From Amphiscolops sp. MND2022 (lineage: Eukaryota), in assembly GCA_964187785.1 (NCBI GenBank), contig OZ076409.1:34784001-34844000 (forward strand): a stretch of DNA of 60,000 bases. Reading direction: 5' to 3'. Positions 13,401 to 45,910 of the stretch are shown here, one piece after another. Under the pieces are notes generated by a model. That model did not search any database and was not told the origin of the DNA. It saw only the letters and a program-made list of their open reading frames with translations. The position numbers were made by a program, and so were the translations under genes. Numbering within the stretch: position 1 is the first letter of the stretch; the number at the start of each line of letters is the position of its first letter.

Positions 13401-16400
13401 ATTGTTGATTATTTCCAGCATTTTAACTTTTCAATTGTCTTTAACTCTCAAAATGACTCACTTTAGTGTACTTCCATAGGGGATAAGTTCTGTTGGTTTG
13501 AAAAATTGTTGATTATGTCCAGCATTTTGGTTTTTTATTTTTCTTTAACTCTCAAAATGACTCACTTTAGTGTAATTCCAAAGGTGATAAGTTCTGTCGT
13601 TTCTAAAAATTGTTGAATATTTCCAGCATTTTGACTTTTCAATTGTCTTTAACTCTCAAAATGGCTTACTTTAGTGTACTTCCATAGGGGATAAGTTCTG
13701 TCGGTTTGAAAAATTGGTGATTATGTCCAGCATTTTGCTTTTTTATTTTTCTTTAACTCTCAAAATGACTCATTTAGTGTAATTCCATAGGTGATAAGTT
13801 CTGTCGTTTCTAAAAATTGTTGAATATTTCCAGCATTTTAACTTTTCAATTGTCTTTAACTCTCAAAATGGCTTACTTTAGCGTACTTCCATAGGGGATA
13901 AATTCTCTCGGTTTGAAAAATTGTTGATTATGTCTAGCATTTTAACTTTTCAAAAGTCTTTAACTCAAAATGGCTTACTTCAGTAAACTTCCATAGGGGA
14001 TAAGTTCTGTCGGTTTGAAAAATTGTTGATTAGGTCCAGCATTTTAGTTTTTTATTTGTCTTTAACTCAAAATGGCTTACTTTAGTGTACTTCTATATGG
14101 AATAAGTTCTGTCGGTTAAAAAATTTTTGATTATGTCAAGCATTTTAGGTTTTTATTTGTCTTAACTCAAAATGGCTTACTTTAGTGTACTTCCACGGGA
14201 GATAAGTTCTCTCGGTTTGAAAAATTGTTGATTATTTTCAGCATTTTAACTTTTCAAATGTCTTTAACTCTCAAAATGGCTCATTTTAGTGTACTTCCAT
14301 AGGGGATGAGTTCTCTCGGTTTGAAAAATTGTTGAGTGTCAAGCATTTTAGGTTTTTATTTGTCTTTAACTCTCAAAATAGTTTACTTCAGTATACTTCC
14401 ATAGGGGATAAGTTCTGTCGGTTTGAAAAATTGGTGATTATGTCCAGCATTTTGGTTTTTTATTTTTCTTCAACTCTCAAAATGACTCACTTTAGTGTAA
14501 TTCCATAGGTGATAAGTTCTGTCGTTTCTAAAAATTGTTGAATATTTCCAGCATTTTAACTTTTCAATTGTCTTTAACTCTCAAAATGGCTTACTTTAGC
14601 GTACTTCCATAGGGGATAAATTCTCTCGGTTTGAAAAATTGTTGATTATATCTAGCATTTTAACTTTTCAAAAGTCTTTAACTCAAAATGGCTTACTTCA
14701 GTAAACTTCCATAGGAGATAAGTTCTGTCGGTTTGAAAAATTGTTGATTAGGTCCAGCATTTTAGTTTTTTATTTGTCTTTAACTCAAAATGGCTTACTT
14801 TAGTGTACTTCTATATGGAATAAGTTCTGTCGGTTAAAAAATTGTTGATTATGTCAAGCATTTTAGGTTTTGATTTGTCTTAACTCAAAATGGCTTACTT
14901 TAGTGTACTTCCACGGGAGATAAGTTCTCTCGGTTTGAAAAATTGTTGATTATTTTCAGCATTTTAACTTTTCAAATGTCTTTAACTCTCAAAATGGCTC
15001 ATTTTAGTGTACTTCCATAGGGGATGAGTTCTGTCGGTTTGAAAAATTGTTGATGATGTCCAGCAATTTAACTTTTCAAATGTCTTTTACTCTCAAAATG
15101 GTTTACTTCAGTATTCTTCCATAGGGGATAAGTCCTCTCGGCTTGAAAATTTGTTGATTATTTCCAGCATTTTAACTTTTCAAATGTCTTTAACTCTCAA
15201 AATGGCTTATTTTAGTGTATTTACATAGGGGATAAGTTCTGTTGGTTTGAAAAATTGTTGATTATGTCCAACATTTTAGTTTTTTATTTGTCTTTAACTC
15301 TCAAAATCGTTTACTTTAGTGTACTTCTATATGGAATAAGTTCTCTCGGTTTGAAAAATTGTTGATTATTTCCAGCATTTTAACTTTTCAATTGTCTTTA
15401 ACTCTCAAAATGGCTTACTTCAGTATTCTTCCATAGGGGATCAGTCCTCTCGGTTTGAAAAATTGTTGATTATGTCCAGCAATTTAACTTTTCAAATGTC
15501 TACTCTCAAAATGGCTTACTTTAGTGTACTTCCATAGGGGATAAGTTCTCTCGGTTTGAAAAATTGTTGATTATTTCCAGCATTTTAACTTTTCAAATGT
15601 CTTTAACTCTCAAAATGGCCTATTTTAGTGTACTTCCATGGGGGATAAGTTCTGTCGGTTTGAAAAATTGTTGAATATGTCCAGCAATTTAACTTTTCAA
15701 ATGTCTAACTCTCAAAATGGCTTACTTCAGTATTCTTCCATAGGGGATAAGTCCTCTCGGTTTGAAAATTTGTTGATTATTTCCAGCATTTTAACTTTTC
15801 AAATGTCTTTAACTCTCAAAATGGCTTATTTTAGTGTATTTACATAGGGGATAAGTTCTGTCGGTTCGAAAAATTGTTGATTATGTCCAGCAATTTAACT
15901 TTTCAAATGTCTTCTCTCAAATTGGCTTACTTTAGTGTACTTCCATAGGGAATAAGTTCTCTCGGTTTGAAAAATTGTTGATTATTTCCAGCATTTTAAC
16001 TTTTCAAATGTCTTTAACTCTCAAAATGGCTTACTTCAGTATACTTCCATAGGGGATAAGTTCTGTCGGTTTCAAAATTTGTTGATTAGGTCCAGCATTT
16101 TAGTTTTTTGGTTTAAACTCTCAAAATGGCTTACTTTAGTGTACTTCCATAGGGGATAAGTTCTCTCGGTTTGAAAAATTGATTATTTCCAGCATTTTAA
16201 CTTTTCAAATGTCTTTAACTCTCAAAATCGCCTACTTTAGTGTACTTCCATAGGGGATAAGTTCTCTCGGTTTGAAAAATTGTTGAATATGTCAAGCATT
16301 TTAGCTTTTCAAATGTCTTTAACTCAAAATGGCTGACTTCAGTATACTTCCATAGGGGATAAGCTCTGTCGGTTTGAAAAATTGTTGAATATGTCCAGCA

Positions 16401-16710
16401 TTTTGGTTTTTTGTTTTTAACTCTCAAAATGACTCACTTTAGTGTACTTCCATAGGTGATAAGTTCTGTCGTTTCTAAAAGTTGTTGATTATTTCCAGCA
16501 TTTCAACTTGTCAATTGTCTTTAACTCTCAAAATGGCTTACTTTAGTGTACTTCCATAGGGGATAAGTTCTGTCGGTTTGAAAAATAATTGATTATGTCC
16601 AGCATTTTAGTTTTTATTTGTTTTTAACTCAAAATGGCTTTCCATGGGGGATAAGTTCTGAAAAATTGATTATATCCAGCATTTTAGTTTTTTTAAATGT
16701 CTAACTCTCC
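10469..16710. repeat. Satellite array, ~104-bp monomer, about 60 copies, with higher-order repeats
   Basis: Monomer about CTTCCATAGGGGATAAGTTCTCTCGGTTTGAAAAATTGTTGATTATTTCCAGCATTTTAACTTTTCAAATGTCTTTAACTCTCAAAATGGCTTACTTTAGTGTA; diagnostic variants recur at about 415, 623, 718 and 1133 bp. Confidence 0.95.
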
Positions 16711-16748
16711 AAAGGTATTCGTTTCGAGTAATTTTTTAAGGGACCTGC

Positions 16749-17194
16749 TGTAATATTCTTTGAATATTAGAAGGTATTAAATTTTGTGATTTTGTGAAGC
16801 TAATTAATAAACCCTCACTGATTAATTTGACCCCAAGTTGGAGCTATGAATATTTAATCTTAATAAAACAACCCACCCCGGAATGCAAATAGTAATTTCA
16901 AGAACAATGAAAAAGCAATAAAAATATATTACGACCCACCCTCTAAATACATACATGGGCAGTTTTTAATAAAAAATATATTGGTTAATTTCCGCATGAC
17001 AGGAAACAATAAAGTGAAGAAAATAAAACATTGATGACAATAATTTGAAGACAAGAAATTTTGGGCTTCTATTGAATAGTTGACTGTAAAGCATCGACAA
17101 TAAAATCTTTTCTGTAAAGCCTTCCTCACGCCCCGCTCTGAAGAAACCTAAAGCAAAAGAGATCTCAAAATTGGAAAACCCCAAGAATTTTACA
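16749..17194 (+). repeat. 5' LTR
   Basis: TGTAATATTC...TTTTACA; matches 27110-27555 apart from about 5 substitutions; AATAAA motifs inside. Confidence 0.97.
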
Positions 17195-17208
17195 TGGTGA
17201 CAAGGAGG
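17195..17208 (+). promoter_or_regulatory. Primer-binding site
   Basis: TGGTGACAAGGAGG directly after the LTR CA; TGG is complementary to the tRNA 3' CCA. The primer tRNA is uncertain (resembles Ser(GCT)-type PBSs). Confidence 0.75.
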
Positions 17209-17224
17209 AAGTGAGGAAAAGACA

Positions 17225-18394
17225 ATGGCAGCTGCAAACCCTCAACCACACATCACACTCAACCCATTCCGCGGAAAACCAGATGAAAATTGGCCAGATT
17301 TCGAGAGTCTACTCAGAAGCTTGATCAATGTTGGAAACATCCCAGCGGCAAACCGACCACAATTCCTGCAACTACACCTACTAGACCAAGCCCTACAATT
17401 CTTTAGAACATTACCACAAGCTACAAGAGATAACTTCGATGCAGCTATTACAGCTCTGCGCAACCACTATTGTAACCCAAATCTTCGAGAATTACACAAA
17501 CTACAACTACATAACTTGAAATTTGATCACAAAACTGGTAGCCCAGAAGACTTCCTCGTACAAGTGCAAATCAAAGCAACACAAGCCTATCCTGACCCAG
17601 TGTTTGCACCTATTCCACCAGCTAACCCACCAAATGACCAAGCTGAAATTGACAGAGTTGCAGCAACAGAAGCAGCGAATCAGACTGTTTTGGACAATGC
17701 GACAAATGAAAGAAACAGAAGGATAAAAGAAATCTTCACAAACTCAATGCCAAACTTCATTAAAAGAAAACTTTTGGATCAAAATGAAGCAGCAACAGTT
17801 CAAGACTTGTGCACTGTGGCTCGAAGGCAAATGGTGTTCTTTGAGCTGTGCCCGAGTGACGATTGGTCCAGAGACGCATTCAACGAAGTGAGTACAACGC
17901 TCTCAGAAAACTTGGTTAGTGCGTTAACTAAATTAACTCAACAACAGGATGAAATCAAACAACACCAAACTGAAATGTCAAACAGAATCAACACATTCAG
18001 CTCTCAAGACATGGGTAACCAGAATTACAACAACGACAATAATCAGAACAGAAACTCTAACTACAGAGGTAACAACAGATACAATAACTCGAGAGGATAT
18101 AGAGGAAGAGGAAACTTCAATCGAGGAAACAACAGAGGAAGAGGTAGATATAACAACAACAGAGGGTACTATGGCAACTACAACAATAACAGAGGTTACC
18201 AAAACAACTATGGTAACAACAACCCACAGCTACAACAGTCATCTAATGATGGACATATTGAAGAGACCAGTTACTCGAAAAATGTATGTTACAACTGTGG
18301 ATACCCAAACCACTACGCCAAAGATTGTATTCAACGTCAACCAGCACAGAGAAACCAGCAAATTCCATATCAAACAGCACCAAAAAACGAGTAG
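17225..18394 (+). CDS. gag: Gag polyprotein (389 aa)
   Basis: ATG ORF after the PBS; N-terminal PFRGKPDENWPDF retrotransposon-gag motif; Asn/Arg/Gly-rich region; CCHC knuckle CYNCGYPNHYAKDC. Confidence 0.93.
   Translation: MAAANPQPHITLNPFRGKPDENWPDFESLLRSLINVGNIPAANRPQFLQLHLLDQALQFFRTLPQATRDNFDAAITALRNHYCNPNLRELHKLQLHNLKFDHKTGSPEDFLVQVQIKATQAYPDPVFAPIPPANPPNDQAEIDRVAATEAANQTVLDNATNERNRRIKEIFTNSMPNFIKRKLLDQNEAATVQDLCTVARRQMVFFELCPSDDWSRDAFNEVSTTLSENLVSALTKLTQQQDEIKQHQTEMSNRINTFSSQDMGNQNYNNDNNQNRNSNYRGNNRYNNSRGYRGRGNFNRGNNRGRGRYNNNRGYYGNYNNNRGYQNNYGNNNPQLQQSSNDGHIEETSYSKNVCYNCGYPNHYAKDCIQRQPAQRNQQIPYQTAPKNE
18382..18388 (+). promoter_or_regulatory. Probable -1 programmed ribosomal frameshift site (gag-pol)
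   Basis: A AAA AAC heptamer in the X XXY YYZ register of the gag frame, one codon before the gag stop; the protease ORF is in the -1 frame. No stimulatory structure identified by eye. Confidence 0.8.
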
Positions 18395-19627
18395 AGCCAC
18401 GCCAGTATGAAGACAAAACGGAAGAAACGACACAAAGAGAGGACCACCAAATTACTGCATGCATATCCCTTGAGGGTGATATTCTATCCTATGTACCACT
18501 AAAATTTTCCTCTAAAGAAACAAGAAAAGCTCTGATTGACACTGGAGCCTGTGCAAATGCCATCAGTGAACATGACTTTGAAGACTTGAAATCTTCTTGT
18601 GGAAATATCTCGCAACTCACTACACCAAAACAGGTCAGTAAAGTGAAATTAGCTTCCGGACAACTTATACCTGTGCGTGGCCAAATAGAACTCCAATTTT
18701 CCATTGCAAATCATTCCTTTAGGGAAACATTTCTTGTCCTGCCCAATACAAACAGTATTATTTTGGGAAACCCTTTTTTCAAAAAAAAACTCTGTAGAAC
18801 TATACCCAAAAGAAAACTTGATGAAACTTCCAGACCTGACATTACAATTGAATGAAATGGACAAACTTGAGAAAACTACAAAAGCCCAGTACTCAATCAG
18901 AACGGTCGAGAAAACAACGATTGCCCCGAACCAACAAACAATTTTAAAATGCGTGTTACTCTCCAAAAATTAATTATCGGAACTTTGCGGGATAGTCGAA
19001 CCGAAAACTAGTTTCGAGGAAAAAACGGGTTTGTGCATAACCTCATCCCTTTCGAAAGTTGACTCCTCAGGTCACCTATTCATTTCTGCATTGAACCTTC
19101 AAGAAAATGAAGTCACGATACCTCGAAATTCAGACATAGCTCTTTAAATTTCTCTCACCCCAACAAGCTGAAACCTTAACACCAATTGACCCTCAATTAC
19201 TGACTTTAGCAAAATTCAAAAACCCAGATGATTTCGTCACTGAAATAAACCAATTGGTAATAGATCAAACTTTTAACTCAGAATCGCAACCTCCCAGACC
19301 TCAACCAGACTACAAAAGTTTTTGGTTCCAGACCCCTGAAACTTGTCGAAATACGGAAAAACTCCGAGGAGTGGAAAAAAGGATTTATGAGGAACTATTG
19401 AAGCTCCAAGAGTTAGATAAAATAGACCCACAAATGGACGCTAGCTACCGTGAAACATTCCTCCAAAGATTCCAATGGAAAGACTCAGTACTGAATCGAC
19501 ATCAAAAACAACAACTAGAAGAGCTACTGATTGAATTCTCGGATATATTTGCCAAACATAGATTTGACGTCGGTTATAATTCGGAAATAACAATGAAATT
19601 GACTCCTGAACATGATAAACCTGTCCA
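18388..19627 (+). pseudogene. pol: 5' part of pol: aspartic protease and linker, disrupted
   Basis: ALIDTGA and ILGNPF protease motifs. Frameshifts at the A9 run (18781-18789), at about 19143 and at about 19627, plus an in-frame TAA at 18971-18973. The segments join into one plausible polyprotein. Confidence 0.85.
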
Positions 19628-22600
19628 CGCAAAGCCCACCGACACCAATACACTTACGAGAGGAACTACAGGTTGAACTTGCACTTTTACAATATTTTGG
19701 AATTATCACCAGCCTCAACCATTCAAAATATAGCAGTCCAATTTTCGCACACCGTAAAACTAATGGAGAACTTCGAATCCTAGTAGACCTACGCCGTATC
19801 AACCATTTACTTCTTCATGATTATCACAACAATAACTTTCCAATCTCAACAATGGCAGACACAACTGCTCATTTTGCCGGAAAGAAACTGTTTTGCAAAC
19901 TTGATTGCTCTCAGGCCTACCATTGTGTACAAATGGCAGACCCACTCTCGGTACAAGTATTGGCATTCAACTTTGCTTCACGAACCCTAGCCTATCAGCG
20001 ATTAGCGAGAGGATTGAACCGATCTGTAACTGGATTCAGTGCTTTTGTGAGAAACTATTTGGAACCATGCCTCTCAGCAAATGTGTGTACACAATTCATG
20101 GACGACATCGGATGTGGAGTCGAATCACCGGAACAACTCCTACCATACCTCAGACAAATATTCCAATGTCTCAGACGCTCAGGACTCAAATTATCCCCAG
20201 AAAAGTGTGTATTTGGTTCTGAACAAGTGAGTTTTCTTGGAAATGTGATTACCAAAGAAGGCCTAAAACCAGAAAAAGAAAAAATAGAGAAATTCTTGAA
20301 AACACTGGAGATTCCAAAATCTGTTAAACAAGTAAAAAGACTGATAGGTTTCCTTCAGTTTTTCAGAAACTTCATCCCAAATTTGAATGAGCATCTCATA
20401 CCATTCTATAAACTACTGCGGAAAAATGTGGCTTTTGAAGTGACAGAAGAAATACTGGATTCGTTTGAAACCTTGAAGGAGAAACTCAAAACAACTGCAA
20501 CGCAAACACTACGATTGGCAAAACCAGGACTACAATATGTAATTTTGTGTGACGCAAGTTACCACTCGAGCGGATTCGTACTCATGATCGAAGACTATGT
20601 CAAAAATGGGAAAGGTGAAGATGTAAAGTCATACGCACCAGTCTCATTTGGATCGAAAGTCTTCAACACAGCTCAGTTGAAAATGTCAATCTACTGCAAA
20701 GAATTCCTGTCACTATATTTTGCCCTGGAAACCTTCTCACACTTCATATGGGGTAGCGAAAAACCTGTACTGATACTGACAGATAACAAGAGCCTCACAC
20801 GCTTCTTTCAAGCAAAGACAATTCCTCCAGCACTTTGGAACTATGTCGACAGAGTAACCACATTCAACATAGTAGTCGCTCATATTCCCGGAAAAACAAA
20901 CGCAGCAGCGGATTTTTTATCTCGCCTGCAAACAAACCCAAACGAAACAGTAGAATTAAAACTTACAGACCGTATTCCGGTACGCGAAATAGAGATTGAT
21001 ATTCGAGCTAAATTACCAGACAATACAATAAATGAACTGTTCTCTGAAGAATTCCCCGATAACCTACTTCAAGTGGTTGATATGAACACATTAATAACAT
21101 TGAAACAATCTGGAAACTTTGAGAATGCCTCACAACACCTAAAAGCCCTGGCAACCCAAAATGAAGAAATCCAATTGACCAGATACAAACCAGCACTCCC
21201 GATCAACGCACTACAACTACAAAACCCGATGGACAATTATCCAGAACTTGAGACATCGGTGGCAATTCTAGAAAGGGAACAACAAAATGACGCCTTACTC
21301 TCGAAGGTGACAACCTGGCTTACAAAAGGTACAGAACCACCACATAATATTTATTCATCAGGAGAAGAACAGAAATATCGGAAACAACTCCCGCGATTAA
21401 CTATAAACAATGGAATCCTTAAACGGAACTATTACGATCATGACGGTACTATCCTTTATAAACAAGTATGTGTACCCAAACACATGCTAAAAGAAATCCT
21501 CTATAGAATACATAACTCACCCACAGGAGGACATTTGGGAATAACGAGAACAATTGCCGAGTTTCGTAGACGCTTTTACTGCCCGAATTACATAGAACAA
21601 ATTGCAAGCTACATCAGAAACTGCTCAACCTGTTTACAACTCAAACTTGTCCAACCATCTCGACTCAAACCTCCGCTAAGCGAACTATCTTCAAAAACAT
21701 CCTTCCCCGGCGACATAATGCAGATCGATATTCAAGGAGCATTTCCCTCATCTCCGTATAAATATGTGCTCACAGCAATTGATGTCTTTTCCAAATACCT
21801 TTTTGCGGTACCCTTGACCACAATAAGTGCGTCATCAGTAGCTGCAGCATTGGCCTCAATTATGTTCAATCACAGCTTTATACCAAAAGAAATAATATCG
21901 GACCTTGGAACACAATTTGTCTCAGAACTTTTTAGTGAACTGACAAAGCTCCTGGAAATCAAAATTACACATGCCTCTCTTAAGCACCCACAGACAATTG
22001 GAGTAGTTGAACGATCACACGCAGCACTCACAAGAATACTCAAACTAAACAGTAATGATACGTTCACAAACTGGCATCGGTATGTACCTTTGGCGACTTT
22101 CATCCACAATACATCATACCATACTTCTATTGGATGCGCACCAACAGTACTCTTCCACGGCAGAGAACCAATGAAACCGCTGGATCTCAGATTCTACAGC
22201 ACATGTATCCAAAAGGCAGCTTTCAATTACGACTTTGTGGAATCTTTACGAGATGAAATGTTAAAGAAATTCTCCAAAACAAAAGAGAGTCTCGAAAAGT
22301 CTTTCGCACGATACCGCAGGTATTATGATCAGAAAGCACGTGCAAACCCATTACAACAACACCAGTTTTGCCTCCTACTAAACCCTAAACTGACGGAACA
22401 ATCTACCTTCAGCTCCAAATTAATACAAAAATGGCATGCACTTTATAGAGTGGAAAAAGTATTGACAGACTCTAATTATCTTATTCGCAAAACTGGAACA
22501 AACTACACACAGATTGTGCATAGAATCAGGATCAGACCTATTACACCACAATACCAAGTTGAAGACATTCCCGAAATAGACCCTGCAAATTTTAGAACGG

Positions 22601-23640
22601 ACCCATCACTGGGACATAACAGAGGAGACACAGATTACTTCGACAGAGGCTACCCATCATTACTACAAGATGACACACCTGTTGAGTCTGTTCAACCGAC
22701 AACATTTGATAGCCCAGTAAGAGTTTCAATTTCATTCGGACAGAGCAATCAGGCCCAACAACACCTACCACCACCTATACCACCAGCGATAAACCCCAAT
22801 ACCGCGAATGAGAACCACACCATAGTAGAACCGGACCATACGAGGATACGACTAACACCCCCAGTCAACCTGACTGCAGACATACCGGAAACTTCCGACA
22901 GTTCGGATGAAAACCCTGAAACAATACAACCCGTGCGCAGATCAGAAAGAATAGCCACACAACCTCAACCAAACTTTAAACTGATTGAAGCTGCGGGAAG
23001 ACAATTGAAAACCCCAAACCCCATAAAACGGACATCACAAGAAACTAAAGAAGCACGTAACTTTATTGATCTACTCAAAAACCGCAGATTAGAACGCCAG
23101 CAAATGCAATTTGTCCAAAGACCTGGATCTCAACAAGAAGGACCGAATGAAAAAAGATCACGCCCAGACATCAATGAAATATGTCAGACAAGAAACAATG
23201 TCAACATAGTCTATGACAACATCTTCTGTTCGTCCTCTAGTATGGCACACTGCGTGTCTTCGGACTTTGCAATGGGGGTAGGTATAGCCAACCAGTTTGA
23301 CAGGCTATACCCCCGAATAAAAACACAATCATCGAAGAACCTTGCTCCTGGTTCAGTTTTTGCATACTATGACAAGTATTCCCGACGATGGATATACAAC
23401 TTGGTGACGAAACGAAAATTTTTCGACAAGCCTTCAATTGCATCACTGCGTTCAAGCCTTCTACTGATGCGTGACCATGCTCAACGGTATGGAGTAGATA
23501 ATATCCGATTACCCAAACTTGGATGTGGAAGAGACAAACTCCTATGGCAACAAGTACGCAACCTCTTGATAGAAGTCTTCCAACACACGAATTTGACGAT
23601 AACCGTTTGTGTACTTCCTCACAGAGCACCCTACGCCTAA
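19612..23640 (+). CDS. pol: Pol: reverse transcriptase, RNase H, integrase and C-terminal macrodomain (uninterrupted)
   Basis: RT: LVDLRRIN, KLDCSQAY, FMDD (20095-20106). RNase H: ILCDAS, KEFL, TDNKSL, ADFLSR. Integrase: HNSPTGGH...CSTC zinc finger and D (QIDIQG), D (ISDLG), E (VERSH). The listed ATG is not the true start; Pol would be made as a Gag-Pol fusion. Confidence 0.95.
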   Translation: MINLSTQSPPTPIHLREELQVELALLQYFGIITSLNHSKYSSPIFAHRKTNGELRILVDLRRINHLLLHDYHNNNFPISTMADTTAHFAGKKLFCKLDCSQAYHCVQMADPLSVQVLAFNFASRTLAYQRLARGLNRSVTGFSAFVRNYLEPCLSANVCTQFMDDIGCGVESPEQLLPYLRQIFQCLRRSGLKLSPEKCVFGSEQVSFLGNVITKEGLKPEKEKIEKFLKTLEIPKSVKQVKRLIGFLQFFRNFIPNLNEHLIPFYKLLRKNVAFEVTEEILDSFETLKEKLKTTATQTLRLAKPGLQYVILCDASYHSSGFVLMIEDYVKNGKGEDVKSYAPVSFGSKVFNTAQLKMSIYCKEFLSLYFALETFSHFIWGSEKPVLILTDNKSLTRFFQAKTIPPALWNYVDRVTTFNIVVAHIPGKTNAAADFLSRLQTNPNETVELKLTDRIPVREIEIDIRAKLPDNTINELFSEEFPDNLLQVVDMNTLITLKQSGNFENASQHLKALATQNEEIQLTRYKPALPINALQLQNPMDNYPELETSVAILEREQQNDALLSKVTTWLTKGTEPPHNIYSSGEEQKYRKQLPRLTINNGILKRNYYDHDGTILYKQVCVPKHMLKEILYRIHNSPTGGHLGITRTIAEFRRRFYCPNYIEQIASYIRNCSTCLQLKLVQPSRLKPPLSELSSKTSFPGDIMQIDIQGAFPSSPYKYVLTAIDVFSKYLFAVPLTTISASSVAAALASIMFNHSFIPKEIISDLGTQFVSELFSELTKLLEIKITHASLKHPQTIGVVERSHAALTRILKLNSNDTFTNWHRYVPLATFIHNTSYHTSIGCAPTVLFHGREPMKPLDLRFYSTCIQKAAFNYDFVESLRDEMLKKFSKTKESLEKSFARYRRYYDQKARANPLQQHQFCLLLNPKLTEQSTFSSKLIQKWHALYRVEKVLTDSNYLIRKTGTNYTQIVHRIRIRPITPQYQVEDIPEIDPANFRTDPSLGHNRGDTDYFDRGYPSLLQDDTPVESVQPTTFDSPVRVSISFGQSNQAQQHLPPPIPPAINPNTANENHTIVEPDHTRIRLTPPVNLTADIPETSDSSDENPETIQPVRRSERIATQPQPNFKLIEAAGRQLKTPNPIKRTSQETKEARNFIDLLKNRRLERQQMQFVQRPGSQQEGPNEKRSRPDINEICQTRNNVNIVYDNIFCSSSSMAHCVSSDFAMGVGIANQFDRLYPRIKTQSSKNLAPGSVFAYYDKYSRRWIYNLVTKRKFFDKPSIASLRSSLLLMRDHAQRYGVDNIRLPKLGCGRDKLLWQQVRNLLIEVFQHTNLTITVCVLPHRAPYA
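23194..23637 (+). other. TARG1/OARD1-like (Poa1p-type) macrodomain at the Pol C-terminus
   Basis: MAHCVSSDFAMGVGIANQF...WIYNLVTK...KPS...LPKLGCGRDKLLWQQVRNLLIEVF...ITV matches the TARG1 motifs AHCIS-D--MGAGIA, IYYLITK, KPT and MPRIGCGLDRLQW. Catalytic-position Lys at 23410 and Asp at 23533. Confidence 0.9.
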
Positions 23641-23899
23641 TGACGGACCACCAACCTTCCCATACCAGACACCCGTAAGTTAACATTAACCAACACTACC
23701 AACCAACCGAATTTACCCTTGAAAACCGTGAAAAATCTATGTTCCTTCACTTTCGCAACCTGCAAAAAACCCCGGAAAACCCATGGATTGAAAAATTTCT
23801 GCAGAAAAACTTCAAGGACAGGTCCTTAGACAAGCCACTATTCGAAAAATGAGCAGAGAATAGACTATTTCGACATACGACATTCAGCATTGACCACAT

Positions 23900-24535
23900 T
23901 TTGACACTGCGAGCATAGAAAAATGACATGTTAACCATACAAAAAACACACCGATGGACACCTTAGAAGTTCATCTACAAGATTGGGTATCTATTGTCCC
24001 TTCAAAAAGCATTGCTGACCTATAAATACCCTATTTGACAAGAAAATCCTATCTGACCCTATGATAAAAATTGACAGTTTGCCACTGCGACTGAGAAAAC
24101 GAGGCAAGATGCCTACACGGAAAATACCTTGACAGACACCCCTAAATGGGTACTACACGATAGGGTGATAGAAAAAGCGCGCAAAAGCAAAATTATATAA
24201 GAAAAACTCCATACTCCCATTTACAATTTTTTTTTCGACCTCAGTAAGTTTCCACGAAAACGACAATTTTGCCACTGCGACTGGCTAAGTGGAAGCAAAC
24301 ATCAGTGCATATTGGGCTTCCCCGGATTGTCCTCCATGAGAACTACACTACAGGGTGATAGCGGATGCGCTCATCCACCAGAGAAAAAAATAAGTGTTTA
24401 AAAAAGGAAAAAAAAATCCTACATTAGCAGAAAATTCCGATTTTGCCACTGCGAACTTATGCACGGACATCATCATCAACACCAAATTTACGTCAGATAA
24501 CTAGCATGACCTAACCCCTAGCCGATAGGGCATAC
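23900..24535. repeat. Four-unit array of two conserved boxes flanking fixed-length unique spacers
   Basis: Box 1 TTTG(C/A)CACTGCGA at 23900, 24078, 24268, 24442. Box 2 CTACAAGATTGGG / CTACACGATAGGG / CTACACTACAGGG / CTAGCCGATAGGG at 23975, 24153, 24343, 24518. Spacers of 62, 62, 62 and 63 nt look unrelated. Confidence 0.8.
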
Positions 24536-24576: not shown

Positions 24577-25443
24577 TTATCTTGGCTGCACTCTTCTGCG
24601 TGCTGAAAATCGCTTCTTCGTGACCCCGGACCTCTTGTTCCTTTTACCTTGTACGACTCGGGAACGTTGGTCAGAATACCTGTTGAAAAACTTCGTCTCC
24701 ATCTTAGCGGCTTCCTCCTCTTCGTGTAAAATAGTGTGACTCAGAAGACAGTTCCAATCATTACTAGGAGTTACAGAGAGAACTAAATGCACAGTCCTTG
24801 CAGGGAAACAAACTGTATCACCGGGTTCCTGAACACAGTACGACAGATCTTTAAAACGTCCGTAGACCATATCTTCAATAAACTGTTGGAAATGACTGTC
24901 CTCGGGCCTTTTAACCAAAACTGCAGCGGACTTAGACCCGGGACTAGCGAAAACCCATAGTTTCCGCCCGCGGAGTAATGAAGCCACAATTTCTGTTGGC
25001 GGACTGTCTGCGTGAAACCCTGTCAGACAATTTCCGGTACTTAATAACAGAACAGGCTCATGAACAACTTGTAGGTCAACAATGGCACTATTGAACCAAC
25101 TGGCGATATCATTGACATTCTCTTTTGGCATGAGGGCAGTTAAAAGCCTTGTGTCAGGGAACTGCACATTCTTCTTCTCCTCACCCCAGTTCTTGAATGA
25201 ACGCAAAATTTCGCCTACCTCAGTGGAATTCAGAATAAGCGACTGTAACTCAGGCTGTTTGTATGAGCAGGCAACACCTCTAACGATGCAAGCAGTTTTG
25301 AACCTACATGCTTCGCTGAGTGATACTGCCTCCACTTCTTTACAGTGACTTTGACACAATTCTAACAACAAATTAAAATTGTCCATGTTATCTGAAAAAA
25401 GTCCATGACCATTAACGTTAAACCCATGGGCCTTCAACAACAT
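24577..25443 (-). CDS. JmjC-domain Fe(II)/2-oxoglutarate oxygenase (histone demethylase/hydroxylase-like), antisense cargo gene, 288 aa
   Basis: Intact ATG ORF. LTGFHAD gives T141, H144 and D146; LLRGRKLWVF gives K161; QEPGDTVCFPARTVHLV gives H219. The T(-3)/H/D(+2)/K(+17) spacing is the same as in KDM2/KDM7/JMJD6-type JmjC domains. Basic C-terminus KRNKRSGVTKKRFSARRR. Confidence 0.88.
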   Translation of the reverse strand: MLLKAHGFNVNGHGLFSDNMDNFNLLLELCQSHCKEVEAVSLSEACRFKTACIVRGVACSYKQPELQSLILNSTEVGEILRSFKNWGEEKKNVQFPDTRLLTALMPKENVNDIASWFNSAIVDLQVVHEPVLLLSTGNCLTGFHADSPPTEIVASLLRGRKLWVFASPGSKSAAVLVKRPEDSHFQQFIEDMVYGRFKDLSYCVQEPGDTVCFPARTVHLVLSVTPSNDWNCLLSHTILHEEEEAAKMETKFFNRYSDQRSRVVQGKRNKRSGVTKKRFSARRRVQPR

Positions 25444-25556
25444 TGTACAAAATAAAAAGGTGTCACGGGATGGATAAAGCTAACTAAACAATTAATACCA
25501 GTACAGAGGAAAGACTAGAAATAACTCTAAGTGAGCTGAGTTGCGAATCGCTGAGT

Positions 25557-25961
25557 TTACGATTGATTTACTCTGTTGCGCACAAATTTGAACAGCACCC
25601 TCCCGATTACGAAGAGAATTGAACTAGCTATGCCAATGCCGACAACGAATATTGGCCATCCACCCTGTTCTCTCATGACTTCTCTGGACTGAACTGCAGA
25701 TGAAGTAATGACACCACATTTCGGATCAACCACAGGAGAGAAACTGACTTTTTTGGAATCCACTAGGACAGTTGTTCCGTCGTTGCAACACTCCAACTCA
25801 ATATTTGAAGTCAAGGAAATCTTGTAACAATCCATGCTCTGAAAGAACTCGAACAACATTTTGGCAAAGTTCAGATTTTGGCAGAGTTCAACATTTTGGC
25901 AGATAGCCTGGCAATAAAACAACAGTAAACAAAGAGACGCCACCCACGCTTGGGTCAACAA
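25557..25961 (-). CDS. Small putative single-pass membrane protein, antisense cargo
   Basis: Cys-containing N-terminal region, hydrophobic segment WPIFVVGIGIASSILFVIG, short basic tail RVLFKFVRNRVNQS. The ORF opens on TTG just after a stop; the true start (internal ATG or a spliced exon) is unknown. Confidence 0.5.
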   Translation of the reverse strand: MLTQAWVASLCLLLFYCQAICQNVELCQNLNFAKMLFEFFQSMDCYKISLTSNIELECCNDGTTVLVDSKKVSFSPVVDPKCGVITSSAVQSREVMREQGGWPIFVVGIGIASSILFVIGRVLFKFVRNRVNQS

Positions 25962-26322
25962 AACAATTCAATTAAAATGGAAATTGAAAATTTCCGGACG
26001 AGTACATTCTAATGAGGCCAGATTATTAACCTTCAGGTTGAACAATGACAAATAATAAAACAACGTCTATTTAATAAAAATCTTCCATGGTTGCGGAAAC
26101 TATTTGCTTGAATTTAATAACCAAGACGCTGACAAGACTGCTGAAAATTTATTGATTCTACATTGGGTACCAACGACCCCATTCCTCCTGAAATTTACTT
26201 GAAATTCAGCCGGTAGCAGAAGTCACCCAAAACATTCAACATTCTGAATATTCAACAAATTCCAAAGAGCCCTAACCTACATATATGAAATGACAACTTT
26301 GACTCACAGTAATTAACCCAAA

Positions 26323-26658
26323 ATGTCTACATCACAAGGCCTGACAGTGAGAGTTACACTAGTGCCCATGAAAATCATCTTTCCGACACCTTTTAAATGG
26401 ACTCCGCCGCGACAGCTACAGCCAATCTTTATCCATACCATTCAAACTCAACAATGTGGATGCTGTGCACCCCTTTTTATTAAAGCGACAACAGAAAACA
26501 CGAGCACCTTCAGTATCATGGACATTGACGAAGAAACACCAGAATTTGAGGACCTCTTTCACTCACTCCAAACATTAACAAAGACTATGAAAGGACAACA
26601 GCCTCTGAAAAAGGAACTCCTTGACCTCTTGGACTACATGGAGATTGAGCTATCCTAA
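26323..26658 (+). CDS. Hypothetical 111-aa protein inside the retrotransposon
   Basis: ATG in good context (AAAATGT); CGCC motif; acidic, helical-looking C-terminus; no family recognised. Confidence 0.35.
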   Translation: MSTSQGLTVRVTLVPMKIIFPTPFKWTPPRQLQPIFIHTIQTQQCGCCAPLFIKATTENTSTFSIMDIDEETPEFEDLFHSLQTLTKTMKGQQPLKKELLDLLDYMEIELS

Positions 26659-26708
26659 TACTGTTAGTACAATACTTTAAAATTGTGAGACCTAGACTTC
26701 AGCCCACA

Positions 26709-27032
26709 ATGCTCTCGTTATTTATCTTTATTCACATAGCTCAGGCTACTAGCCGCCAAGGCAGTTTGGACAAGGGCAATTTATTTAAAGAAGAAACCAA
26801 AATCATGCAGATAGAAAAATTTAGTAATGTCCAATTTTTGCTCCCTATCCCACGCTTTATTGTGATGGTGGAAGATCATTATCTGGAAGAATTGGAAAAT
26901 GACGAAAAATTTCCGTGGAGAAACAACAGTTTGCTGATTCCAGAATCTCAACTAAAAGAAACACGAAACCCTGAGCCCGATGCCCCAATCTACTCACAAC
27001 TCAATAGACAACTACGAACAGGTCAAATTTGA
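26709..27032 (+). CDS. Short secreted-type ORF at the env position, possibly a truncated env-like remnant
   Basis: ATG at 26709 starts a signal-peptide-like MLSLFIFIHIAQATS; lies just upstream of the purine tract and 3' LTR; no transmembrane anchor, and too short for a functional Env. Confidence 0.35.
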   Translation: MLSLFIFIHIAQATSRQGSLDKGNLFKEETKIMQIEKFSNVQFLLPIPRFIVMVEDHYLEELENDEKFPWRNNSLLIPESQLKETRNPEPDAPIYSQLNRQLRTGQI

Positions 27033-27109: not shown

Positions 27110-27555
27110 TGTAATATTCTTTGAATATTAGAAGGTATTAAATTTTGTGATTTTGTGAAGCTAATTAATAAACCCTCACTGATTAATTTGACCCCAAGTT
27201 GGAGCTATGAATATTTAATCTTAATAAAACAACCCACCCCGGAATGCAAATAGTAATTTCACGAACAATGAAAAAGCAATAAAAATATATTACGACCCAC
27301 CCTCTAAATACATACATGGGCAGTTTTTAATAAAAAATATATTGGTTAATTTCCGCATGACAGGAAACAATAAAGTGAAGAAAATAAAACATTGATGACA
27401 ATAATTTGAAGACAAGAAATTTTGGGCTTCTATTGAATAGTTGACTGTAAAGCATCGACAATAAAATCTTTTCTGTAAAGCCTTCCTCACGCCCCGCTCT
27501 GAAGAAACCTAAAGCAAAAGAGATCTCAAAATTGGAAAACTCCTAAACTTTTACA
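27110..27555 (+). repeat. 3' LTR
   Basis: 446-bp copy of the 5' LTR, followed by TSD CCTGC. Confidence 0.97.
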
Positions 27556-28245
27556 CCTGCTATGTTCGATTGAAAAAATATCGCTTATTTGCGGCATTTT
27601 GATGAATAGTTTGTCTTTGTCCTATAAAATGGTTTTGTTTAGTATTTTTCAGTTTTTATTGATTATTCTTTCGGTTCCTTGTGCAAATTTTGTCTTCCTC
27701 TGATTTGCTATTTGGTAATTTCACTACTCCCATGATGTAGACACACAATGTACTGGGTAAGACGGGCCTAACCCAGCCTGCACAGTACGAGTGTCTACTG
27801 GGTTCTTAGTATTGGTTGACCTCTCTTGAAGCAGGTAGACCGTTACAGCTCTACTCTTCAAGAATCGGGTTGAGGTTAACCCTAGACTCCAGTAGACACT
27901 CAAAATCTCTTGCACAAGTACTGATTCGATTCGATTCCAATCTTCACTTTTCTTCCCTCTTCGATTTAAATACCTCTACACTGACTATATGGCGGTATCA
28001 CATGTAAATTGTACAATTTCTCTACGTGGTATGGAATTACTGCAATAATGTTTTAATCAATTGTTCTTGAAATTAACTAGCTTGCTCCGTCATTATTTTT
28101 TACTTTTGCTGACTTCTCTTTTGTCTTGGAAATAGTTTTTCTGGCTAATGTTTTTTTGCTTCTGAAAGGGTATAAAAGCAGAAATAGTCGTGTGCCCCGG
28201 AGGGGCCTATTTTCAAATGAGGTAGAAACTGTACAAACTCTGTAC

Positions 28246-30510
28246 TTTTTATTTTTCTTTAACTCTCAAAATGACTCACTTTAGTGTAATTCCATAGGTG
28301 ATAAGTTCTGTCGTTTCTAAAAATTGTTGAATATTTCCAGCATTTTAACTTTTCAATTGTCTTTAACTCTCAAAATGGCTTACTTTAGCGTACTTCCATA
28401 GGGGATAAATTCTCTCGGTTTGAAAAATTGTTGATTATATCTAGCATTTTAACTTTTCAAAAGTCTTTAACTCAAAATGGCTTACTTCAGTAAACTTCCA
28501 TAGGGGATAAGTTCTGTCGGTTTGAAAAATTGTTGATTAGGTCCAGCATTTTAGTTTTTTATTTGTCTTTAACTCAAAATGGCTTACTTTAGTGTACTTC
28601 TATATGGAATAAGTTCTGTCGGTTAAAAAATTGTTGATTATGTCAAGCATTTTAGGTTTTTATTTGTCTTAACTCAAAATGGCTTACTTTAGTGTACTTC
28701 CACGGGAGATAAGTTCTCTCGGTTTGAAAAATTGTTGATTATTTTCAGCATTTTAACTTTTCAAATGTCTTTAACTCTCAAAATGGCTCATTTTAGTGTA
28801 CTTCCATAGGGGATGAGTTCTGTCGGTTTGAAAAATTGTTGATGATGTCCAGCAATTTAACTTTTCAAATGTCTTTTACTCTCAAAATGGTTCACTTCAG
28901 TATTCTTCCATAGGGGATAAGTCCTCTCGGCTTGAAAATTTGTTGATTATTTCCAGCATTTTAACTTTTCAAATGTCTTTAACTCTCAAAATGGCTTATT
29001 TTAGTGTATTTACATAGGGGATAAGTTCTGTTGGTTTGAAAAATTGTTGATTATGTCCAACATTTTAGTTTCTTTGTCTTTAACTCTCAAAATCGTTTAC
29101 TTTAGTGTACTTCTATATGGAATAAGTTCTCTCGGTTTGAAAAATTGTTGATTATTTCCAGCATTTTAACTTTTCAATTGTCTTTAACTCTCAAAATGGC
29201 TTACTTCAGTATTCTTCCATAGGGGATAAGTCCTCTCGGTTTGAAAAATTGTTGATTATGTCCAGCAATTTAACTTTTCAAATGTCTTCTACTCTCAAAA
29301 TGGCTTACTTTAGTGTACTTCCATAGGGGATAAGTTCTCTCGGTTTGAAAAATTGTTGATTATTTCCAGCATTTTAACTTTTCAAATGTCTTTAACTCTC
29401 AAAATGGCCTATTTTAGTGTACTTCCATGGGGGATAAGTTCTGTCGGTTTGAAAAATTGTTGAATATGTCCAGCAATTTAACTTTTCAAATGTCTAACTC
29501 TCAAAATGGCTTACTTCAGTATTCTTCCATAGGGGATAAGTCCTCTCGGTTTGAAAATTTGTTGATTATTTCCAGCATTTTAACTTTTCAAATGTCTTTA
29601 ACTCTCAAAATGGCTTATTTTAGTGTATTTACATAGGGGATAAGTTCTGTCGGTTCGAAAAATTGTTGATTATGTCCAGCAATTTAACTTTTCAAATGTC
29701 TTCTACTCTCAAATTGGCTTACTTTAGTGTACTTCCATAGGGGATAAGTTCTCTCGGTTTGAAAAATTGTTGATTATTTCCAGCATTTTAACTTTTCAAA
29801 TGTCTTTAACTCTCAAAATGACCTATTTTAGTGTACTTCCATGGGGGATAAGTTCTGTCGGTTTGAAAAATTGTTGAATATGTCCAGCAATTTAAGTTTT
29901 CAAATGTCTTTAACTCTCAAAATGGCTTACTTCAGTATACTTCCATAGGGGATAAGTTCTGTCGGTTTCAAAATTTGTTGATTAGGTCCAGCATTTTAGT
30001 TTTTTGGTTTAAACTCAAAATGGCTTACTTTAGTGTACTTCCATAGGGGATAAGTTCTCTCGGTTTGAAAAATTGTTGAATATGTCAAGCATTTTAGCTT
30101 TTCAAATGTCTTTAACTCAAAATGGCTGACTTCAGTATACTTCCATAGGGGATAAGCTCTGTCGGTTTGAAAAATTGTTGAATATGTCCAGCATTTTGGT
30201 TTTTTGTTTTTAACTCTCAAAATGACTCACTTTAGTGTACTTCCATAGGTGATAAGTTCTGTCGTTTCTAAAAGTTGTTGATTATTTCCAGCATTTCAAC
30301 TTTTCAATTGATTTTAACTCTCAAAATGGCTTACTTTAGTGTACTTCCATAGGGGATAAGTTCTGTCGGTTTGAAAAATAATTGATTATGTCCAGCATTT
30401 TAGTTTTTATTTGTTTTTAACTCAAAATGGCTTTCCATGGGGGATAAGTTCTGAAAAATTGATTATATCCAGCATTTTAGTTTTTTTAATGTCTAACTCT
30501 CCAAAGGTAT
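28246..30510. repeat. Second block of the ~104-bp satellite (about 22 monomers)
   Basis: Same monomer as 10469-16710. Confidence 0.95.
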
Positions 30511-31221: not shown

Positions 31222-32347
31222 AAAGGGTGTTTTGGCTCGAGATTTCCAAATAAAGTCTTTCCGCTTTTTGAGTCATTACCGGAGCGCTGTATCGGATTTT
31301 CACTGCTCGTTCAGAATTGAAAGTCAGTTACGAGTCCCTTCCTTGGTAAACTCATTCTTACAGTCGCCCCAACAGGGAGCAACACGTCGTGCGCAAAAAT
31401 TCCAAAGCACGTGTATAAGGAGTACTCAATATCCAATAGGATGGATATCCTATAATACTCAATATCCAATAATAAGGAGTACTCAATAAGGACTCAATAT
31501 CTAATAGTCATAAAATTTCACACCCTTATTTTATTTACAAAGAGCAAAAATTTGTCCCTCATTTACAGCAAAAATCGATTGTCATACCATATCTTTATAC
31601 ATGAAAATTTCAATTTTACCAAGATTTGATATTATATATTACCAGGAAGCTGGAAATCCTAAATTGTGATGATCGGGTGAAAAAATTGTTGACTGAATTC
31701 AAAATAAATATAAAAGCAGGTTTGTTTTTAAAAGTGATGACTGTTTTCTGGCCAAAATTGCGGTAATGTATAAAACTGCTAACCTCTCCTGATTTTTTGA
31801 TCCTGGTCATTCCAAAAAACGCAAATGTTGACTTGATAAATACATGGCCAAAAATGGTAATAGAAAAAATGCCTGTTCAGTTAGATCAGTAAGAGAAATT
31901 TACAGTGAAGAGGAAAATCCTTAAAACCACTTTCCAAGCGGTGATTCTGCGTCAACTAAAATCACCACAACAGTTCTGAAGCAGTAGACGCTGCGTTTTC
32001 ATTGACAGCTTCGAAGTCTGGACATTTCAAACTTTTGTCAGATGGTGTTACTCAAATCACCCACTTTACCCATATTGTATCGTTTTCTTTTCCTTAAAAA
32101 AGACAGACATGTGCAATGAGATGAGGGAGGGCCTTGAGCATCAACGTGAAATATCTTGACATGATTACCGCCAAAAGTGTTTTTGCAAAATCTACATCGT
32201 AACATCAATGGCTGGCATCGACAATGAGATGTTCGCGCTCCAACTTTGGAAAACAACAAAATAAAAATTGAGAAAACCTGGAAAAAGTCCAAAAATATTT
32301 TCACCGCTCAAATTGTACCTCGGCATTGATTTTTATCAAAAATTCAA

Positions 32348-33410
32348 AAAGACGGAAACGTGTCAAGTCGGCGCTATACTTAAGGCTCAAAAAGCGCAAA
32401 CTTTAAAATAAAAAGGCTCAATACATTTTCTATAGAAAACTCACAAAGTCCGAAACACCCAAAGGGTGCCTTCAGTGCTCGGAAAACGTTTCAGAAGTTC
32501 CGATGTAGCGTGTTGAGACAAAGGGGAGCGCTTGTTGTTGAACCTCTGCCTCCTCCTTAGAAAAATGCAATATAGTTCGGATATAACCTCAAAAATTCGG
32601 ATATAGCACTTTACTTCGAATGTTACGTCAAACATTTGGATTGTATGGAAACAAAATATTGGTGGATATGTATTGAGAAAACCTGAAATCAGGCAAAAAA
32701 TGAGAATTTTGAACAGGTTCATAGTGCCAAAAAATGTCAAATGATTTTTTTTAAATCCATTCCGTCGAAAAAACAACGAAAAAAGTGAAGATGGCCCTTT
32801 GGAGACATTGAAAAAATTTCGGGAAAAAATCTCACAAAGCGGAAAAATGGGAAGTCTCACAGTGCCGAAAAAAGCGGAAAGGCGGGACTCTTCTACTTTG
32901 GCATAATTTTGTATTAGTAAGAGGATTTGGAGGCATTCAAAATCGAGTACTAAGTTTTAATGGTAAAAGTGCACAGTGCCAGTGCACAAAAAACGGACAA
33001 TTCAGAATGAGACTGACAAAAGAAGCAAGACGGGAACGTTTAAAGTCCACGCTATACCTAAGGCTCAAAAAACGCAGTTTTTAAAAAATGCGTAGGACGT
33101 TTTCATGAAAAACTCTTGTTCTCGAACCTCCGCCTCCTCCTTACTAAAACGCAATATAGTTCGGATATAACGTCAAAGTTCGGATATAGCGCTTCACTTC
33201 GGATATTACGAAAGAGGACATCAGTAAAATCAGACTCATGGTGCTGAAAAATGTAAAAAGAGAGCCAATTTGGGTTTTTAAACATTCTTCTTGTTGCAAA
33301 ATATCAAAAACATTTGAGGGAGGACACTTCTAAGACATTTAAATTTCTAAGACATTTTTCAAAAAAAAAACGAAAAAAGAGAATTTTGAACAAGATCACA
33401 GTGCTCAAAA
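32348..33410 (+). mobile_element. Two degraded copies of the DINE-1/Helentron-like family
   Basis: Termini AAGACGGAAACGTGTCAAGTCGGCGCTATACTTAAGGCTCAAAA (about 32348) and CAAGACGGGAACGTTTAAAGTCCACGCTATACCTAAGGCTCAAAA (about 33026); shared internal GAACCTCyGCCTCCTCCTTA...TTCGGATATA block. Confidence 0.55.
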
Positions 33411-44457: not shown

Positions 44458-45910
44458 GTGAGTGATGAACCTTTGAAGTTTAAATTAATTGGCACATATG
44501 ACTGGAATAAAATCTAAAAGCATAGCACCGTAGGGTCCGTTTCATTCTTTTTTAATCGCCGGTTCTTTATGAAGTGAAACGCGTCTGTTTTAGTGGCTTT
44601 TCGTCAATTTTTTTTTCAATTTTTCAATCCGGTCAAAGTGGCCATAAACGTCTACAAAAATTTCTAAAATCCTATGATCTGAAGAGGGCCAAAAGGGTTG
44701 AAAGGGCATGCTTTCATTTGTTAGTATTTTTATGCAAATTACAAAGCTATCTCTAAGTGGATTGCTTCTAAGTGCTATTCTTTTTTTTGAAAATTTTCTT
44801 TTTTTCACAAAAGGTTCTCTCTTTGGTTTTTGACACTTTCAGCATTTTTCTGCTCTGTGAGATTTTGAGAAATATTCTGAAAACTTTACAGTGCAAACTC
44901 TTCAAAATAGAATCGAAAACACTACATTCAGAGTCTTGAAGGACCATGGTCATACCGCTTTCACACAGTAAACATCAGAGAAGCTCACACAGTAAACATC
45001 AGAGAAGCAAAAACAACCAACAGACCATCGCGTGGAAAACATGCCTAATTTTCCGTCAATCAAAACGAACGACTGCTGTAGCAATTTTTGTGTCTGGTCT
45101 GGACGACACTAGCTAGCTGTTTTCAAAGTATGAAATCCCACGGGACTTGGAACTCTTAAAATTTAATTGTGTTCCTGCAGTAGCTTATGCAATTTTAAGG
45201 AAACTTTTTTTCAAATCCGATTAACCACCCCAGAGAATTCTTAGTCTGTGGCCATACATGTCCCAAATCTGACAGAGAAAAAACCATGACAAGATTTTGG
45301 TAAAAAACCTATGGTCTCAGACCTGGCCCTAGAATGAGAAATCACTGACTACAGATATAACCCCAAGCTAAAAAAATGTATGGAAAGTAGATCTTTCAGG
45401 TATCATTGAAAAAAATTGATGTAGAGTGGCATAAGAACATAAGAGTGGCAGAAAAGAAAAGTCAAAGTCCTCGGAACTAGAATGCTCTGTTCCTTTGTAG
45501 TTCTTCCGATTTCCTGTGAATTCCCTGCATGGAGAAAAATTGAAATAATGTATTGAGCAAATCAAATTCAATACTTTCGAGAGTTCAAGTTTTCTTAGTG
45601 ATGACCAACTGTAGATACGATGTTAGAAAGAGACGCATTGAGGTTGCGACATTTTTAGAAGAGAAAAAAATGAAATTGAAACGCAGCTTTTCGAAGTTTT
45701 TTTTTCAAACCCGTACTGGCACTACAGTGGACTTAAGTCCTTGCCACGATAACTAAAGGATTCCAAAGACTGCCAAGGATTTCCCCAGTTTTCGAAAACT
45801 GCAGTCCTTGAGAAATTTCGATAAAAAATTCGAAAATGCAAATGGGCGCAGCCATTTTGAATTTGAGTAGGAAAAACGTAGTTTCAAGTGTATTTTCTAT
45901 CAATTATGCC

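Follow-up and report, generated by a model that had tools for sequence, protein, structure and literature searches.

A four-unit array with a U4-like box in a Gypsy-type LTR retroelement of Amphiscolops sp.: a candidate cassette of antisense mini-RNA genes

Between two converging genes of a retroelement of Amphiscolops sp. MND2022 there is an array of four units, each of them with two short conserved boxes held at an almost fixed distance. The question raised by this locus is whether the array consists of genes for short RNAs, of sites bound on the DNA, of signals within longer transcripts or of decaying copies. The window analysed is a stretch of 60,000 nt (assembly GCA_964187785.1, contig OZ076409.1, positions 34,784,001 to 34,844,000 of the forward strand), and all the coordinates given below are positions within it. 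A preliminary description of the array had proposed either a cassette of small-RNA genes or nucleosome-spaced binding sites. The reading preferred here is that the array would be a cassette of snRNA-type mini-RNA genes whose U4-derived handle acts through U6, to which, taken as a whole, a little less than an even chance is given.

The host of the array is a young Gypsy-type LTR retroelement in which Pfam recognises gag, protease, RT, RNase H and integrase. It is flanked by a 5-bp target duplication, with identical copies at 16744-16748 and 27556-27560, and its main features are the following:

16749..17194, plus strand: 5' LTR (LTR pair identical at 441/446 positions)
17201..18394, plus strand: gag ORF with a zinc knuckle
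19603..23640, plus strand: pol ORF with RT, RNase H, integrase and a C-terminal TARG1/OARD1-type macrodomain (about 23218-23613)
24577..25479, minus strand: antisense JmjC-family ORF with HxD...H metal ligands and a basic C-terminal tail (Pfam JmjC, E 6.5e-4, a weak match with a score below the curated cut-off)
27110..27555, plus strand: 3' LTR, partner of the 5' LTR

In this copy, the protease-to-RT stretch upstream of the pol ORF is split into separate frames. The macrodomain, which is joined to the integrase, matches human OARD1 chains with E 2e-23, and a macrodomain match is present in 16 of 63 pol relatives. Relatives of the antisense JmjC protein in ENA records form 15 clusters, several of them multicopy, and belong to several subfamilies; among cluster representatives the family comprises 81 relatives, some very distant and multicopy, and its profile gave 0 matches against solved structures. 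These neighbouring accessory genes (JmjC and macrodomain) have been kept in many subfamilies. A diverged pol (P0086) and a diverged JmjC (P0008) come from contigs of equal length, which hints at a recurrence of this layout. No DNA-binding domain beyond the integrase was found by Pfam in either of the proteins flanking the array, and no description of an LTR retrotransposon with both JmjC and macrodomain was found in the literature searched.

Other features of the element and of its surroundings were also observed. The primer-binding-site position (17195-17212) shows TGG first and then a purine-rich stretch. Three short ORFs lie between the JmjC gene and the 3' LTR (25557-27032; 136 aa on the minus strand, 113 and 127 aa on the plus strand), none of them with a convincing Pfam family; the last one, which opens with a hydrophobic stretch, is presumably at the envelope-gene position. 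The element sits in a non-satellite island of about 750 bp, and a 104-bp satellite with a 415-bp higher-order period flanks it (10469-16640 and 28256-30433), one satellite segment being faintly like one of the two boxes (box B, see below). Elsewhere in the window, seven near-identical tandem copies of a 1021-1025 bp unit extend over about 45900-52700 (Rfam, 0 matches in one unit), and a dispersed repeat family is present at 2844-3750, 32346-33343 and 59643-59962, with several inverted or direct copies of 50-110 nt and a 126-bp internal period.

The array is located between the converging stop codons of the pol-macrodomain gene and the antisense JmjC gene, and its units, read on the minus strand, are as follows:

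23889..23990, minus strand: unit 1; box B 23975-23990, middle block 23932-23959, predicted +1 23932, variable 20 nt 23913-23932, box A 23900-23912 (one mismatch), no T-run
24066..24168, minus strand: unit 2; box B 24153-24168, middle block 24110-24137, predicted +1 24110, variable 20 nt 24091-24110, box A 24078-24090, T5 24066-24070
24257..24358, minus strand: unit 3; box B 24343-24358, middle block 24300-24327, predicted +1 24300, variable 20 nt 24281-24300, box A 24268-24280, T4 24257-24260
24431..24533, minus strand: unit 4; box B 24518-24533, middle block 24474-24501, predicted +1 24474, variable 20 nt 24455-24474, box A 24442-24454, T4 24431-24434

On this strand each unit runs from box B (16 nt) through about 15 free nt to a weak 28-nt block that ends on a pyrimidine-purine (YR) step, and then through 20 free nt, box A with two partly kept bases, about 5 free nt and the T-run. 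Box A (13 nt) starts at 23900, 24078, 24268 and 24442, with periods of 178, 190 and 174 bp, and 51 of its 52 bases agree across the four units, 12 of the 13 columns being invariant. When the intergenic region was shuffled 2000 times with its dinucleotides preserved, three exact copies of a 13-mer appeared once. Box B stands 62, 62, 62 and 63 nt from box A; the extra base of unit 4 is on the promoter side of the middle block. The conservation of box B, anchored on box A, was equalled in 1 of 5000 shuffles, and a profile made from any three copies ranks the fourth above essentially all the other minus-strand positions of the element. The unit number, periods, boxes and spacing of the preliminary description are therefore borne out and exceed chance. 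The same is true of its T-run, which consists of 4-5 T and begins exactly at the 8th base past box A in units 2, 3 and 4 (rough chance 0.003) and is lacking in unit 1. Neither a fifth unit nor an extra copy of either box was found within the window. Judging by this conservation, the array is real and under constraint.

Outside the array, the 7-nt core of box A is present in the element at two further places only, 23248 and 23444, both within the sequence that encodes the macrodomain. One of these two copies overlaps conserved His-Cys-Val codons, and neither has a box B at the right distance. Origin of the array from the flanking satellite was considered and rejected: box B resembles it with p 0.01-0.04 in 3/4 units, at differing places, and whole units are not significant.

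The spacers between the boxes had been described as unrelated. They are instead diverged homologues, because 129 of 372 pairwise positions are shared in register, shuffles giving 98 +/- 8 (p 0.0002). The linkers between units (about 85, 97 and 81 nt) had been described as dissimilar, and in this case no similarity was found in any of the three pairs (p 0.35-0.97). The excess of spacer identity is concentrated at offsets -42 to -21 from box A (57/132 against 36, p 0.0003); no excess is seen in the 20 nt adjoining box A (33/120 against 32.5), and the first 20 spacer nt are only slightly above background (39/120 against 31, p 0.07). Leave-one-out profiles rank the middle block, whose edges were chosen after the columns had been seen, at 0.001, 0.004, 0.064 and 0.004, and the 20-mer at 0.41, 0.09, 0.28 and 0.51. 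To judge from the spacers, the four units are diverged tandem copies of one unit.

Diverged homology of the spacers had been taken in the preliminary description as a sign against its proposals. The homology is present, but conservation is distributed too unevenly along the units for a uniform decay, because 12 of 13 box A columns and only 5 of 62 spacer columns are invariant; at the spacer rate, uniform decay would yield the box A result with P about 1e-12. Besides, the four spacers differ by one 1-nt indel, whereas the linkers differ by 4-16 nt in length.

What kind of constraint could hold the inner spacing and leave the linkers free? A YR step lies at -21/-20 from box A in all four units (0.003 per offset); a second one common to all four lies at -26, and 2 of the 109 offsets scanned qualify in total. 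If the step at -21/-20 is taken as +1, box B falls at -58 to -43, so that the predicted start site is 58 nt after the start of this PSE-like box. Related to this, SNAPc is described in bioRxiv 2022.09.21.508861 as contacting -57 to -35 and as determining through distance where transcription starts, with CA as the initiator. The vertebrate PSE is placed about 60 bp before the start (PMC4494074), and in insects the snRNA promoters used by Pol II are reported to carry, downstream of the PSE, a second and weak block (PMC1761439). Setting of the start site by distance, of the SNAPc type, would account for a fixed inner spacing with free linkers.

The preliminary description had called box B snRNA-PSE-like. 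The start-site distance agrees with this, and so does the motif TCACCNT of units 2 and 3, which is the 5' half of the human PSE consensus as given in PMC5493778. On the other hand, the match to that consensus, which may not be the host's, is weak: of the 12 positions that the consensus specifies, the best box B, in unit 2, fits 8, and 1.4% of window positions reach this score; in the other three units the consensus is matched best at a place other than box B. The PSE likeness of box B, as far as its bases go, is weak. No TATA box was found about 25-30 bp upstream of the predicted start in any of the four units, which suggests Pol II, as in humans a TATA-less snRNA-type promoter is a Pol II promoter (PMC1790723, PMC5493778); the T-runs, which form a Pol III-type terminator (at least 4 T) at one offset in 3/4 units, suggest Pol III. 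Considering this geometry, the odds are rated somewhat better than even that the units are minus-strand transcription units.

The same arrangement could be read at the level of DNA, as composite binding sites about one nucleosome apart (enhancer, insulator or anti-silencing sites) with no RNA involved, possibly bound by the JmjC or integrase-macrodomain protein of the element. Two to three motifs at constant spacing, periods of 174-190 bp, the imperfect inverted repeat formed by box A and the JmjC and macrodomain genes at both sides of the array are in agreement with such sites. Nevertheless, the periods vary by 16 bp and the internal spacing by 1, and strand-specific features (the YR step, the T-run and the sense match to U4 described below) are left unexplained. 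Besides, the flanking proteins have no Pfam DNA-binding domain other than the integrase, and the window holds no extra copies of the boxes. DNA-level sites are considered unlikely, and the nucleosome-spaced, VANC-like version that had been proposed finds no support.

The third element of the argument is the identity of box A. Ten of its bases, CGCAGTGGCA, are those of human U4 nt 8-17 in units 2-4 (10/10), and unit 1 has 9/10. U4 pairs with U6 in stem II through nt 3-16 (PMC13253345), and most of the ten matched bases fall in this U6-pairing arm. The letters of box A are given as U4 in primers of PMC2234240 and PMC4338353, and also in PMC13253345. The likeness was noticed after the fact, and human U4 is the sequence compared. 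The chance of a 10-nt anchor of this kind is 0.007 with an assumed snRNA library of 1300 nt and 0.04 with 7000 nt.

Counted by eye, without a computed alignment past nt 20, the match extends to 14/16 in unit 4 (nt 8-23), to 14/17 in unit 3 (nt 8-24, with nt 1-3 also shared) and to 19/25 with one gap in unit 1 (nt 8-32), which is the longest extension; in unit 2 it is not extendable without gaps. None of the four units agrees with U4 at nt 7, 18 or 19, and nt 1-7 are mostly unmatched. Given the anchor, the extensions have probabilities of 0.0015, 0.005 and 0.02, which are not independent and skip nt 18-19; the extended matches are singly modest, with 0.01-0.09 expected by chance at 1300 nt and 0.05-0.5 at 7000 nt. 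Related to pairing, box A gives -13.9 kcal/mol with its human U6 partner, a value equalled by 0.6% of 2814 control 13-mers. The duplex that U4 itself forms with human U6 is much stronger (-18.5 kcal/mol for nt 7-17 and -23.8 kcal/mol for nt 1-20), and the whole 44-mers stand only within the top 1-11% of controls. The U4 register would set +1 at -6, where YR is present in just 2/4 units.

The units themselves are not U4 genes. The Rfam U4 model gave no match on the array with E up to 10; the 5' stem-loop with k-turn, stem I and the 3' stem-loop of U4 were found in none of the units, there is no consensus fold, and in 3/4 units the T-run comes as early as 20 nt past the start of the box. In none of the four is box A followed by an Sm site and a terminal hairpin, and the T-runs have no following G. 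Taking together the anchor and its extensions, it is fairly probable that box A derives from U4. The small-RNA cassette of the preliminary description has been modified more than abandoned: a third conserved block, the YR step in 4/4 units and the U4-matching box speak in its favour, whereas the variable part would be of about 20 nt, not 62, and the constant handle looks U4-derived.

A match to U4 might also act at the level of longer RNAs. Read on the plus strand, box A necessarily pairs without mismatch, over 10 nt, with U4 nt 8-17, and the four boxes could then lie in the genomic RNA, behind the pol stop, as pairing sites for the U4 5' arm or for a small RNA of the host; on the minus strand they could be tandem 3' splice acceptors or 3'-end signals for the JmjC transcript. 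The position of the array between two converging stop codons suits these signals, and minus-strand box A contains CAG, with YTRAY 22-25 nt before the box in 3/4 units. However, the constant 62-63 nt to box B would have no explanation, no conserved plus-strand fold goes beyond a 4-bp invariant stem (z -0.71 for the whole region), and the pyrimidine content of the 20-mer is not clearly raised (50/80, p 0.07). To our knowledge, splice acceptors do not retain 13 invariant bases, which argues against that version. Signals in longer RNAs are regarded as improbable.

Less probable still is that the array is a relic, left by the duplication of a captured U4 gene 5' end, now functionless and in decay, with boxes that template switching or gene conversion keeps alike. 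The homology of the spacers, the fragmentary U4 likeness and, in unit 1, the box mismatch together with the missing T-run are what would be seen in such a case. The invariance of box A under uniform decay, with the P value of about 1e-12 given above, tells against it, and so do the single 1-nt spacer indel compared with the 4-16 nt linker differences, the youth of the element (LTRs 441/446) and the accessory genes kept in many subfamilies.

If the units are mini-RNA genes, their predicted products are of 44-45 nt and would have no shared fold. No pre-miRNA hairpins were found in them: the folds range from -4.1 to -10.8 kcal/mol, with a combined p of 0.28 against leader shuffles, and one unit of four folds better than its leader shuffles (p 0.04). 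Conserved RNA structure was found on neither strand. A search of the 60-kb window for targets of the 20-mers found none, the best matches being 13-15 of 20.

Several known RNA classes were rejected for the units. U7 snRNA is defined by a U7-type Sm site, RUUUNUCYNG, and a 3' hairpin (PMC5054213), and by eye neither a U7-type Sm site nor a 3' hairpin is present in any of the four units, which also have no Rfam match to U7. The motifs of an SL-RNA are also absent by eye. A tRNA or tRNA-derived cassette was discarded, with 0 ARAGORN genes and no cloverleaf; box A presumably fits just the 3' half of the tRNA A-box consensus. Rfam gave nothing credible on the array or on the whole window.

The same transcription units could deliver their product to an Argonaute/Piwi-type pathway with no relation to U6. 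Either the variable 20 nt would serve as guides carried by a handle that binds protein, a situation like that of the SNAPc-driven piRNA loci of nematodes, or the leader would be removed and the constant U-starting piece of 22-24 nt would be the guide. All the evidence on promoter geometry fits such a pathway, nematode piRNA loci being SNAPc-derived short Pol II units (PMC6436959), and box A opens with T in 4/4 units, with 24-25 nt from box A to the end of the T-run. The U4 match and its extensions would be left unexplained, and the products have neither a pre-miRNA hairpin fold nor a 20-mer target in the window. A low probability is assigned to it.

Copies elsewhere were also sought. Scans with pol found none in viral and prokaryote contigs and 24 loci of 1.0-10.1 kb in metagenome contigs; none of these 24 has box A exactly or with one mismatch, and in the close ones the sequence stops at the end of pol or shortly beyond it. 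The JmjC alignment found no relative in metagenome and viral contigs. The box patterns gave 24 matches in viral contigs and 2 in prokaryote contigs, each of them lone and taken as chance, and the U4-like pattern was found in 0 viral contigs. Reading-through of box A as a peptide was not convincing in any of the relatives' proteins P0001-P0106, and in 78 further JmjC relatives box-A peptides gave just 2 unrelated matches. One sibling ORF, about 80% identical, spans 23640-23899 and ends at the edge of box A, which suggests that the absence of the T-run in unit 1 is shared with the sibling copy.

Turning back to U4-handled mini-RNAs, the array would most likely have arisen by capture of a U4-gene promoter and 5' end by the element, followed by duplication, truncation and divergence. 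Box B would bind SNAPc and the start site would be set by distance, hence the constant 62-63 nt while the linkers drift. The promoter geometry and the U6-pairing arm would have been kept, the first 20 nt would have diverged and the T-run would shorten the RNA, which would then consist of 20 variable nt, 13-15 U4-like nt, about 5 nt and a U-tail. Owing to the antisense placement, the upstream promoter would travel in the genomic RNA without truncating it.

Function would be the weakest step of the mini-RNA reading, and that the RNAs act through U6 is a tentative proposal, given roughly one chance in three. In its most speculative part, the handle would pair with the U6 stretch normally held by U4 stem II, as a decoy or as a tether, and the 20-nt leader would be a guide or an unconstrained spacer. 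The RNA would bind U6 or U4/U6 proteins, possibly blunting a splicing-linked silencing of the element. It has been reported that centromeric silencing is lost in a fission yeast U4 mutant with no clear splicing defects, and that stalled spliceosomes trigger siRNA in Cryptococcus (both as described in PMC5322907). The flanking JmjC and macrodomain genes would fit a counter-defence module. A more specific version, in which the RNAs would be snRNA-derived programmable guides, with the variable 20 nt aimed at host transcripts such as silencing-factor pre-mRNAs and the U4 handle docking on U6 or on U4/U6 proteins, next to the JmjC and macrodomain proteins as counter-defence, is considered doubtful.

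If the units are expressed, this would be an LTR retrotransposon with snRNA-type genes of its own, in which U4 has been recycled into a short trans-acting RNA. A U4-arm mimic in parasite genomes was not found in the literature searched, which was judged mostly by title and the start of the abstract and covered few subscription journals. Exact predicted starts and a predicted partner would give a direct handle on how parts of the spliceosome feed transposon silencing. Together with JmjC and a TARG1-type macrodomain, the array points to a possible animal-type retroelement family with a three-part counter-defence kit.

Among the known systems, the plant VANDAL/VANC elements are DNA transposons with short tandem motifs bound by VANC. 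The likeness to the array is that non-coding motifs are repeated within an element whose accessory proteins are chromatin-related; unlike those motifs, the units of the array are strand-asymmetric. With a U4 gene the units would share a PSE-like box upstream, the stem II nt 8-17 and a partial likeness to nt 20-32, but they have about 14 extra 5' nt and lack the 5' stem-loop with k-turn, stem I and the Sm site, and the Rfam model is unmatched.

Four systems are closest in working, the HSURs, the BLV and foamy-virus cassettes, the nematode piRNA loci and SINEU, and for none of them was every defining feature found in the array. In the nematode 21U piRNA loci, a SNAPc-derived motif (the Ruby motif) is at a fixed distance from a short variable transcript (PMC6436959), as the upstream box of the array is from the predicted one; those are host loci with precursors of about 28 nt and no constant transcribed box, whereas the array units have U at +3 in just 2/4. 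The Pol III miRNA cassettes of BLV and foamy virus are independent small-RNA units ended by T-runs (PMC4378190), and like the units of the array they lie inside a reverse-transcribing genome. Their promoters are internal, of type II, and their transcripts form pre-miRNA hairpins, whereas in the array the PSE-like box lies upstream, a U4-like box is common to the units and no hairpin was found.

Herpesvirus saimiri carries several genes with snRNA promoters, the HSURs, which act on host RNA pathways (PMC4378190), and it is in the carriage of snRNA-type genes by a parasite genome that the array would resemble them. HSURs are Sm-class RNAs, with an Sm site and a 3' box, from a DNA virus, whereas the products predicted here are of about 44 nt, have no Sm site and would come from antisense units in an LTR retroelement. 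Finally, SINEU is described as a retroelement with pieces of the spliceosomal snRNAs U1/U2 and no promoter (PMC4494074); in contrast to it, the array pairs a promoter-like region with a short U4-like piece, and does so four times within an LTR element.
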